A stretch of DNA of 63,927 nucleotides, counting the filler, from Stramenopiles sp. TOSAG23-2 (lineage: Eukaryota): assembly GCA_900128395.1 (NCBI GenBank). It is 17 parts of 17 records of this genome, joined end to end, with 100 filler letters (N's around TTAATTAATTAA, not from the genome) between each part and the next. Parts side by side here need not be neighbours in the genome. Positions count along the whole stretch, not along the records: positions 30,250 to 34,461 come from LT650956.1; 16 more parts are not named here. One strand, written 5' to 3'. Made by a program: the position numbers and the translations under genes. The notes below the pieces were generated by a model. That model was not told the origin of the DNA. It was given only the letters and a program-made list of their open reading frames with translations, and did not search any database. Below are positions 32,500-35,525 of the stretch, piece by piece. How positions within the stretch are numbered: position 1 is the first letter of the stretch; each line of letters opens with the position of its first letter.

Positions 32500-32843
32500 A
32501 AAGAATAAATAATAGTTAAGGTATTTTAGTCCATAGGATATTTTAATTAATTAAAGTTGGTATTAAATCGTGTCACTATTAAAGTAGGAAAAAGACAATC
32601 GGAAATTAAGAATTTTCATTTTTTTGTTTAATTTTTTCTGAATTTTTTATAAAAATGACTACTACACTATAACACGCATCTCATTAATTATTACCACCTG
32701 GTAGACTCGACGAACAACGATGACGTATATTGGTAATAAAAATATATTTATATATTTGTGTCACATACATACATATTGCATTCCTTTCATTTATCATAAA
32801 CAACAACAAAAGAGGCGCTGCTAGTGAAACCGTTCATTATAGC

Positions 32844-33530
32844 ATGGCCAAACGCCCACAAGCGAATACTCATAAGATGGAAAAGGCGATAACAAACATT
32901 TGTTTATACGGTTATGGAACGTGTAATTTTTATAGACAATCTACAAAACTAGGAGAAAAGGCAAAGGAAAAAGGCTTAATAAACCTTGAGAATAAAAGGT
33001 TCATAGATAGTAGTAGTTATTTTACTTGGTTAAAAGAAAACAATTCAAGTGGGTTTGCAGAAAATCATGAGCTTTGCCCAATTATATGGATAGAGACAGG
33101 TGATGAAAAAAAAGAATTAATTGGCGGTTGTACTGAATTTCATAAATATATGAAAGAAAAATATAATTTTGGCAGCGGGGAGTGCAACGCAACATGCGGT
33201 CTAAGAGGTCTTACATGGAAAACACTGGGTAGAAAAGATAAAGGCAGAATAATTATAGCATCTGCTATTTTTGCATTGTTTCTAATAATGGCATTATTGA
33301 TGATAATAATTGGACTAGATAAACACTATCGTTTTTATTTGTACATACCCTTGTCTGTTTCATTTGTAGTGGGAGGGCAAGTTTTAGCTTTATGAGTTAA
33401 AGAGGCTTTCAAAGAAATTGTTCTTGGGAAAGCCTCAAAAGGTACTTTGATTTCTGTTTTAAAGTTGATTACAATTAGTTCAATTTTAGCAGCTGGTGTG
33501 ACAGCTTTATTTGTATATATAATACCATAA
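32844..33530 (+). CDS. Probable selenoprotein: glutaredoxin-like domain fused to a membrane domain; in-frame TGA at 33393-33395; 228 aa
   Basis: Grx-like LYGYGTCNFY...CPIIWI...LIGGCTEF; TM region RFYLYIPL...GGQVLAL-TGA-VKEAF then 44 more codons with a further TM helix to TAA 33528-33530; SECIS-like hairpin follows. Confidence 0.75.
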
Positions 33531-33537
33531 AGAAGAA

Positions 33538-33694
33538 GTTGCAAAGCAATGCAATCAAGATTATAAATGACAATCAATTCTTTTTAAAATAATACCATTT
33601 TGTAAAAAAATAGATATGATAAACTCGTTTCTATTTTTCATATATATCATACCTACAATGGAGAAAAATTGATTTGATATTGCCATGATGCAGC
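33538..33694 (+). promoter_or_regulatory. Candidate SECIS element with elongated apical stem
   Basis: AUGAC (33567-33571) / UGAU (33675-33678) quartet; helix II AAUCAAUUcUUUU with AGAAaAAUUGAUU; AAAA at 33586-33589; helix I GCAAU/AUUGC plus GUUGCA/UGCAGC; apical CCAUU..GUA/UACAAUGG and AAAAAUAGA/UCUAUUUUU. Confidence 0.75.
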
Positions 33695-34561
33695 TACACA
33701 CACATCATATTCATATATATATGATAGTAAATGTTTTTATCAAGAGATTTAATATATATATACGAGTATATATATAAATGTTTAATACAAATGTCACACG
33801 AAACGACAAACAAAAGCAAAATATTTTATTACAAATATAAAATAGTCACGTATATACTCGTAATATTTATAATCCTCTTGTTTGAAAAAATGAAATTAAA
33901 TATTTGATAATATATGATATTTTAATTATATAATGCATATTTCTGGATTTCATATATCATAATATCATATAATGATGGTTAAAATCTAAGTTATGTGAGA
34001 GATATAAAATAAATTTATAATAATATATATATATTATCCAGATAGTTACTGGCTGTTGTTCACAACAGGATCTTTCACTTTGACAGCCTCACCGTTTTCG
34101 AATGAACCCGACGTCTAGCGCGTTCAACGAACGAACATGGAAGGATAGAAACCTACTCATGCTTGTGGAGTATTAGTTTGCACAGGTGCATTAGAGCTTT
34201 ACTATATCATACTTCGTATCATAGTATGATATCATATGATATACGAAGTAGGATAGAATTATTATTCTTAAGATTGAGAGTATTGAGCATATTTACTAAG
34301 CACGGGAAGTAAAATTATTATAACTTATAGATTTTAACCATATCAATAATATCATACGAACGTGTATTATATATATATATATATTATGATACTTCGTATA
34401 TGATATATATATGACAATACAAAAACATTTAGATTGATTAAACCATGTGATTTACAACTTTNNNNNNNNNNNNNNNNNNNNNNNNNNNNNNNNNNNNNNN
34501 NNNNNTTAATTAATTAANNNNNNNNNNNNNNNNNNNNNNNNNNNNNNNNNNNNNNNNNNNN

Positions 34562-35525
34562 TGTATATAATGTTGTATATGGATTGTTCTATTTGGCGGT
34601 GGCAATTGCGCATCTGGCGATGCAACCAACTGGTTGCGACGTTACCACATGGGCAAATGGCTGTGTTAACAAGATTCCTTTCTGTAATACTTTGTTTACA
34701 CCCACCTGTAATTGCGCTTCATTAATGATAGAAAACAATAAATCGCTGGTAAAATTGCCTAATTCGTTGGCAGACGAGATGACGGGGCTGCGTAAACTGT
34801 ATATACGCAATTGCAATTTGACAAATTTACCGCCCAACATGGAACAATTAACGGAGATGGTGGATTTTGAGATATCGTTTAATCAGTTACAAACATTTGA
34901 AGTAGATATATTGAAATGGAAAAAACTAGATAGTTTAGTGCTGATTTACAATGAACTAGAAAGTTACAATCAGGCTGCTTTATGGGCACATCCACATCTC
35001 GGCTATCTTGATGTGTCAGATAATATTGGTATGGAATTGCCAAGTGCTGAAACGAAAATTGCAATGCCTTTGCTACGGTATTTTGGGTGTAGAAATAATA
35101 GTATAACGATTCATCTTCCATTTGATAAGAATCGCTTTCCAAATCTTATAGATTTATATGTCAATGGCAATCGATTAATCGAATTTCCAGATGCATCGTT
35201 ACAAGAAACGCTTCAGTATGTAGGTGTTGCTAGATGCGATTTAAAAAATCTGCCATCGTATTTGGCTGAATTTAAGCAATTGCAATACTTAGATGCACGG
35301 GATAATAATATTTCAGAGGTGAATGATGACTTGAAGATGTTGATAAGTAAAAACGAAGTAGAGTCGTATTTTTCAGACAATCCGGTGTGCAATACAGATG
35401 TGACTTTAGATTGTGAGCCATTATGCAGTAAATATTGCGGAAGTAAAAATGTGGTAGCCGATAAGTTCTGTCATCCCGAATGTAACTCAGAGGAGTGTCA
35501 GTACGATGGCAGTGATTGCTTTTAA
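34562..35525 (+). CDS. Leucine-rich-repeat protein with C-terminal LNR/Notch-like motif (5' partial)
   Basis: LxxLxLxxNxL-type repeats; terminal FCHPECNSEECQYDGSDC. Confidence 0.88.

Follow-up and report, generated by a model that had tools for sequence, protein, structure and literature searches.

Introduction

A thioredoxin-fold domain is joined to a membrane thiol oxidoreductase in the VKOR-Trx fusions and in DsbD. In the selenoproteins SelK and SelS, a disordered tail carries the selenocysteine (Sec) residue close to its C-terminal end. The membrane selenoprotein MSP was predicted in Ostreococcus, Chlamydomonas, Volvox and Dictyostelium and is described as restricted to unicellular eukaryotes, two Sec residues being mentioned for the protein of Dictyostelium (PMC2375036). 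MSP is almost exclusively Sec-containing, and SelK, SelS and MSP are all given as membrane-anchored proteins which occur almost only in the Sec form and have no Cys homologues (PMC7539508).

The Sec-UGA of SEPN1 is followed, after a 6-nt spacer, by a conserved 16-bp stem with a 5-nt loop (PMC3159437), and this stem stimulates readthrough even when the SECIS is absent (PMC3159437; PMC2248747). For structure-driven readthrough in viruses and Drosophila, similar stems are described at 7–12 nt from the stop (PMC3159437).

The gene analysed here is located in a stretch of 63,927 nucleotides of DNA from Stramenopiles sp. TOSAG23-2 (GCA_900128395.1; filler letters included), which is referred to as the window. 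Its product resembles SelK, SelS and MSP in being, as predicted, membrane-anchored; no Cys form was found among the seven profile matches which reach the candidate Sec position. It differs from SelK and SelS in the position of the candidate Sec, which is placed between membrane helices 2 and 3 and behind a glutaredoxin (Grx)-fold domain. Dictyostelium MSP, compared by its description only (PMC2375036), has two Sec residues, whereas one in-frame TGA and a final TAA are present here. The likeness to the VKOR-Trx fusions and DsbD is one of proposed function: a soluble thiol-redox domain is anchored to a membrane module made of helices, which has a redox residue at the surface of the membrane, the module here having three predicted helices and a single UGA-encoded residue.

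Reading frame and coverage by RNA-library contigs

The window consists of AT-rich, gene-dense eukaryotic DNA. Its long frames are single-exon and encode Clp1, AP-3 beta, kinesin, the C-terminus of a dynein heavy chain, Na/Ca exchangers, a GH56 hyaluronidase-like protein and others. No tRNA gene was found in a scan of the whole window.

The frame under study starts at the first ATG (32844), and its table-11 ORF is ended by the TGA at 33393–33395. Past this codon the same frame is open for another 44 codons (33396–33527) until a TAA at 33528–33530; both the end of the ORF track and the continuation had been read from the sequence by the first-pass annotation. The long product counts 228 residues and the short product, up to the TGA, 183 residues with Leu183 as the last one. 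The coordinates of the features are collected in Table 1.

Table 1. Features of the gene in window coordinates, ordered by start position.
Feature	Coordinates	Strand	Basis
Candidate mRNA body, covered by RNA-library contigs	32810..33815	+	Contigs of X15–X18; ends not fixed
Coding part 1, residues 1–183	32844..33392	+	First ATG to the codon preceding the TGA; P0002 ends here
Grx-like domain, residues 15–118	32886..33197	+	Predicted b-a-b-a-b-b-a fold; Cys27 (TGT 32922–32924), Pro79, Gly94-Gly95
Predicted membrane helices 1 and 2, residues 136–157 and 164–183	33249..33392	+	Hydropathy; invariant K160, R163, V176, Q179
In-frame TGA, very probably recoded, position 184	33393..33395	+	Same column is TGA in L002 (922–924)
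Predicted coding part 2, residues 185–228: amphipathic loop and membrane helix 3	33396..33527	+	25/44 residues identical to L002
Predicted stem-loop, 9 bp + 5 bp, 4-nt loop, 6 nt past the TGA	33402..33436	+	MFE and covariation with L002
Final stop TAA	33528..33530	+	L002 counterpart: TGA 1057–1059 after the same ..IP
3' region scanned for SECIS, none found	33531..33815	+	Rfam and own descriptor

The open extension is the longest among the 17 frames of at least 120 codons in the window that end in TGA. Antisense frames reach 42 and 32 open codons past a TGA, and by itself an open extension of 44 codons is not beyond chance.

Metagenome and metatranscriptome runs of marine and seawater origin contained the gene stretch; they come from 11 studies, and six are RNA libraries. 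Contigs covering it were obtained from four RNA libraries (X15–X18) of three studies, two being poly(A)-selected and one oligo-dT primed. The TGA is bridged by one record of each library: X18 record 25 (32825–33527), X16 record 10 (33207–33436), X15 record 2 (33290–33537) and X17 record 18 (33370–33559). These are contigs and not reads, which neither prove transcription nor fix the ends of the mRNA; the furthest one stops at 33815 and there is no cover at 33859–33919. None of the four bridging records shows a joint or an altered letter at 33393–33395, which speaks against an intron and likewise against editing or a fault in the assembly.

Clear genes in the window, such as those of the GH56 hyaluronidase-like protein and of ankyrin/ubiquitin proteins, end with TGA, and the standard code leaves frames of up to 1249 codons open. 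In this organism UGA therefore serves as an ordinary stop, and any recoding of the codon at 33393–33395 would be site-specific.

Conservation behind the TGA

A single metagenome scan, with patterns fitting close orthologues only, returned three contigs, designated L001, L002 and L003. L001 is an independent contig identical to the window, including the TGA. L003 turned out to be a false lead, a bacterial epimerase which shares one peptide pattern. L002 carries the orthologue of another, more GC-rich organism, with 57% identity.

In L002 a TGA (922–924) occupies the same column and is followed by exactly 44 open codons, the frame ending after the same ..IP with a TGA at 1057–1059. Between window and L002, seven of the codons behind the TGA are identical, 18 differ only synonymously and 19 non-synonymously. 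The TGA itself is unchanged, though both of its flanking codons differ synonymously. Given the same TGA column, the 44 open codons, the 25 of 44 identical residues and the 18 of these kept via synonymous codons, the extension is real and beyond chance. The first-pass annotation would have been contradicted by orthologues ending here in TAA or TAG, or by a lack of conservation downstream; instead, L002 has TGA and 44 conserved codons.

Identity to L002 is 57% in the extension (25/44), 57% in the N-terminal part (68/120) and 58% in the membrane part (34/59). The extension is as conserved as the protein body, which suggests that it is made in most molecules. Since Met is absent from the extension in both orthologues, it has no independent AUG start. 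With the TGA column and the 44-codon frame conserved in L002 and 18 of the 25 identical residues kept via synonymous codons, the UGA at 33393–33395 is, as judged from these comparisons, very probably decoded and not terminating.

The terminal TGA of L002, right after ..IP, is followed by four codons and a TAA (1057–1074). An L002 mRNA would carry one recoded and one terminating UGA, 45 codons apart. The second TGA is at the conserved C-terminus.

Relatives of the protein

A word-indexed protein search gave five matches. P0002 corresponds to the protein of the window up to the TGA, with 183 aa and 99% identity, and stands for a cluster of 42 member sequences; P0003 is the same stretch with the TGA read as W by its source, continuing to ..YIIP. 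P0004 and P0005 are orthologues of 52–54% identity which both end in the TGA column, and P0006 is an N-terminal fragment.

A profile built from both read-through proteins and searched against 1.84 billion representatives gave 18 matches at E≤0.001, with the membrane-bearing relatives being 22–38% identical to the window's protein. The TGA column is reached by seven of the 18, and five of these seven end there or one residue later: P0002, P0011 and P0012 end exactly at the column, P0016 and P0017 (together with the cluster mate P0035) one residue past it. P0013 runs past the column with a W, which is the reading of its source, and its extension is 71% identical. P0008 has a recognisable extension, only by way of a shifted frame over helix 2, and this shift looks like an artefact of gene calling or assembly. 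Of the other matches, four are N-terminal fragments, and the remaining seven have the N-terminal domain as a soluble copy or in a different fusion.

Apart from the source-read W of P0013, neither Cys nor another ordinary residue was found at the TGA column in any of the seven profile matches which reach it. The protein search gave no longer or fused form of the membrane protein, and among shorter proteins P0013 was the only C-terminal piece. Scans of genome and viral contigs with P0025, P0035 and A1 for DNA of the distant relatives returned nothing. The ends of these relatives are known from their protein sequences alone, from which their stop at this column is presumed to be TGA as well. The gene calls P0003, P0013 and P0008, all of which pass the TGA, look like caller or assembly artefacts, yet show the extension in two more lineages.

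The glutaredoxin-like domain

A structure model based on an alignment of 16 sequences (pLDDT 83, pTM 0.65) predicts a b-a-b-a-b-b-a order of elements over residues 17–107, with strands at 17–24, 46–53, 80–85 and 89–94 and helices at 28–42, 56–65 and 96–107. In structure comparison, residues 15–118 resemble glutaredoxins and the N-domains of GST. The best structure match (VIA) of this region was with 9d2f_F (Z 14.3, rmsd 2.4, 98 residues aligned), and Grx1 (3msz_A) was matched with Z 10.5 and rmsd 2.6 over 85 aligned residues; in the Grx-fold comparison, Foldseek gave a TM score of 0.74 on the target. The 16-sequence profile, compared with PDB sequences, hit the N-terminus of MDH1B over about 105 residues (E 2.2e-8 and 3.1e-8) and E. 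coli Grx1 (E 7e-4). No Pfam family of the thioredoxin fold, Glutaredoxin PF00462 included, matched the window protein (E up to 10) or 12 of its relatives (E up to 1). A search of the ESM Atlas with the 183-residue part and with P0025 gave scores of at most 0.87 and faint leads only, to GST_N_3 and Glutaredoxin. Taken from the model, the N-terminal stretch of about 100 residues has the predicted fold of a glutaredoxin, and the Grx-like module of the first-pass annotation is upheld by the predicted fold, the structure matches and the profile matches to MDH1B and Grx1.

The motifs which had been pointed out in this module are all present in the window protein: TCNFY at residues 26–30, CP at 78–79 and GGC at 94–96. 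The Cys of CP is not conserved, the orthologues having SP. Cys27 is located at the b1-a1 junction and is kept in all seven membrane-form sequences that cover it; H75, P79, G94 and G95 are nearly invariant in the 16 sequences, P79 taking the place of the cis-Pro ahead of strand 3 and the pair G94-G95 preceding helix 3. Classical glutaredoxin 1 has a CxxC motif, whereas here its second Cys is absent (C-N-F-Y), a single Cys remains and the Pfam Glutaredoxin family finds no match. A CxxxC linker (C114..C118), also part of the earlier proposal, occurs only in the window's protein, the orthologues having one Cys there.

The N-terminal domain of MDH1B (residues 2–106; PDB 9d2f_F and 9fqr_Xq), matched in profile and in structure, shares with the Grx-like domain the motifs C-P/N-x-Y, H-x-T/S-S-P-x-I/V-W and GG. 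MDH1B is a ‘putative malate dehydrogenase 1B’ of the mammalian ciliary radial spoke 3 and, unlike the membrane protein described here, is soluble and fused to a dehydrogenase. At E 2e-8, its N-terminal 100 residues belong to the same Grx-like family.

The same domain precedes a deiodinase-like domain in the transcriptome protein P0023 (T4_deiodinase E 5.8e-6). This protein, as well as P0056–P0058, combines the Grx-like domain with the start of a deiodinase-like part and ends at ..FGSCS, presumably the place where deiodinases carry Sec. P0023 probably represents a further selenoprotein whose UGA was taken for the end by the gene caller. In P0019, P0021 and P0022, the Grx-like domain stands behind a 4HBT thioesterase-like part (E 8e-4) or a faint AhpC-TSA_2-like part (E 0.05), the latter being that of P0021. 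The Grx-like domain looks like a portable redox partner.

Membrane part and topology

Three hydrophobic segments were found by hydropathy, and the model places helices at residues 130–156, 160–193 and 199–226. The third segment corresponds to the membrane helix which the first-pass annotation expected to be gained past the TGA. In the membrane part, K160, R163, V176 and Q179 are invariant in eight sequences. The pattern around these residues, which has a putative likeness to MSP proposed by the first-pass annotation, had been given with nine positions between YLYIPL and Q; the actual spacing is R-x-YLYIPL-x8-Q-x4-U-V.

Ahead of helix 1 the charges amount to +6/-1, and behind position 184 to +4/-2. 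Because of the positive-inside rule applied to these charges, the Grx-like domain and position 184 would be on the same, cytosolic side of the membrane. The idea of a ‘self-contained membrane redox relay’, put forward from the sequence earlier, would be compatible with this predicted topology.

A stem-loop behind the TGA

Upon folding, the hairpin of the window has a minimum free energy of -18.1 kcal/mol and that of L002 of -17.4 kcal/mol, with z about -2.7. The same two-part 14-bp stem is predicted in both orthologues, with 27 of the 28 cells paired in the gap-free alignment. Window and L002 differ at 11 positions in the 35-nt hairpin, and eight of these make up four doubly changed pairs (G-C to A-U, U-A to C-G, A-U to G-C and G-C to A-U). 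No doubly changed pairs arose in slid registers. When the 11 differences were placed at random, at least four compensated pairs resulted in 63 of 200,000 placements, a crude null which ignores coding constraint; the covariation is that between two DNA sequences, the window and L002.

As in the Sec redefinition element (SRE) of SEPN1, the stem-loop lies in the coding region, starts 6 nt past the recoded UGA and has covariation in its favour. It differs in its two-part stem of 14 bp, its 4-nt loop, its protist host and the fact that no SECIS was found, and its activity is putative. A conserved, compensated stem at a short and fixed distance past the stop is also described for alphavirus nsP3/nsP4 and for Drosophila kelch and headcase (PMC3159437). 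Those stems begin 7–12 nt past the stop (PMC3159437) and, unlike the one found here, frequently close long loops. As described, they are conserved within one virus genus or insect order, whereas several protist lineages are involved here. A hairpin of this kind, known both for the Sec codon of SEPN1 and for plain readthrough, supports recoding and decides for neither.

SECIS search

No SECIS was found with Rfam at E≤10 in window 32500–35000, in window 33396–33900 or in L002 925–1500, and at the gathering score Rfam found nothing in the whole window or in L002. Two descriptor scripts of our own, which look for NUGA...AA...GA with helices I and II and were not calibrated on known SECIS elements of the lineage, had as best candidates -6.3 in the window (at 33722) and -13.8 in L002 (at 1112). 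Neither is better than the background, which in 254 window bins of 500 nt has a median of -4.2 and a 10th percentile of -15.8. The SECIS candidate noted earlier at about 170 nt downstream is not supported: Rfam gave no match at E≤10, and the best candidate of the descriptor, at 33722, scores at the background median.

Inspected by eye, the AUGAs at 33567, 33616, 33685 and 33723 were rejected, as they lack helix I or II or are in competing hairpins. The motif UAUNAAUGACAANC, shared by both orthologues at 37 and 52 nt past the two stops, was set aside as well, having no common structure and being within chance for AT-rich DNA. There is little 3' room in L002 because a convergent gene ends at 1678. 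A non-canonical SECIS may be present, the sensitivity of Rfam and of the descriptor for this lineage being unproven. It is the missing SECIS that weakens the Sec reading most.

Neighbouring DNA

(AT)n palindromes at window 33740–33780, in the 3' region, and at 34350–34410, in the intergenic region, form long AU hairpins, and these yield spurious microRNA-like Rfam matches (mir-568 and mir-4012).

A segment of about 170 nt at window 34034–34206 is GC-richer than its surroundings and has a summed depth of 20 to 600 in the four RNA libraries, compared with 3–6 for the gene. Many contigs carry the segment; they are 90–95% alike and differ in their flanks on both sides. No Rfam family matched this segment. 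The segment could correspond to an abundant small RNA or to a repeat common to related organisms.

Runs of N at window 34462–34506 and 34519–34561, between the gene and that of an LRR protein (from about 34584), make part of the intergenic region unreadable.

Probable decoding of the UGA

It is reasonably probable that the UGA-encoded residue is Sec and the gene that of a selenoprotein. This reading is favoured because of the deep stop column, the constrained extension, the thiol-redox fold, the lack of forms with an ordinary residue and the spacing of the SEPN1 type. The product would be a membrane protein of 228 residues with a cytosolic Grx-fold domain, in which one Cys (Cys27) is conserved, and three membrane helices, the UGA-encoded residue 184, most likely Sec, lying where helix 2 ends on the cytosolic side. 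The hairpin 6 nt downstream would aid decoding of the UGA in the manner of the Sec-redefinition element of SEPN1. At the membrane surface and beside the invariant Arg163 and Gln179, Sec184 may act on a membrane-borne oxidant or disulfide and could be recycled by Cys27 of its own Grx-like domain, with glutathione. The comparisons themselves bear out the recoding, the hairpin with its covariation, the Grx fold and the three hydrophobic segments; the identity of Sec, the topology, the Sec184-Cys27-glutathione relay and the membrane-borne nature of the substrate we infer. A redox role of position 184 draws no support from a Cys-form homologue; in protists, several families of selenoproteins are found almost exclusively with Sec (PMC7539508).

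Programmed readthrough independent of a SECIS, by which the hairpin would make a share of the ribosomes insert Trp, Cys or Arg via a near-cognate tRNA, is unlikely but deserves serious consideration because a SECIS was found in neither orthologue, with either of the two methods. It would yield, equally doubtfully, a two-helix form of 183 residues and a three-helix form of 228 residues, the C-terminus of the latter being across the membrane. The short form would still comprise a complete Grx-like domain and two helices. Relatives down to 22–38% identity, however, all end at this column, and we know of no readthrough that is conserved as deeply. A conserved 3' stem-loop near the stop is a known readthrough signal (PMC3159437; PMC2248747), but the cases described (PMC3159437) have spacers of 7–12 nt and mostly UGA-C, compared with 6 nt and UGA-G in the gene studied. 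The conservation of the extension, equal to that of the protein body, the thiol-redox fold and the probable use of Sec in related lineages also speak against readthrough.

A true stop, with a protein ending at Leu183 and the downstream likeness due to a constraint at the RNA level or to another non-coding one, would agree with the gene callers, which end the protein here in every lineage, and with the conserved RNA hairpin in the downstream stretch. The hairpin spans just 35 of the 132 nt, however, and in both orthologues the whole frame of 44 codons stays open up to the same ..IP, with 18 synonymous-only against 19 non-synonymous differences and an identity equal to that upstream, making a true stop highly improbable. 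That UGA is generally a sense codon, as two sources have it by placing W at the TGA (P0003 and P0013), or that the TGA is spliced out, edited or an assembly error, is barely credible in view of the 17 TGA-ended window frames with clear genes among them, the frames open up to 1249 codons under the standard code, the TGA by which L002 closes its own frame, and the presence of the TGA, with no joint, in contigs of four RNA libraries and in the identical contig L001.

Whether the residue is Sec or not, recoding could proceed without a canonical SECIS in the 3'UTR and with the hairpin as the main or sole cis signal. The hairpin would then be a codon-adjacent Sec signal of a eukaryote, or part of a deeply conserved protist readthrough which switches between a two-helix and a three-helix topology. 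We advance this only tentatively and consider it rather unlikely.

Significance

A full-text literature search for a Grx-like membrane selenoprotein gave nothing that fits; the family may already be listed as MSP or ‘Hypo’ in selenoproteome supplements or databases. On either reading, Sec or readthrough, the hairpin could be probed directly with a reporter. With a residue other than Sec, the gene would be a case of structure-driven stop-codon readthrough in protists, and one of unusual depth. If the residue is Sec, the protein would combine a Grx-fold domain with a three-helix membrane module that has Sec at the surface of the membrane, an architecture of which we found no description. Such a gene would be missed by pipelines that search for a SECIS first, which bears on the completeness of protist selenoproteomes.
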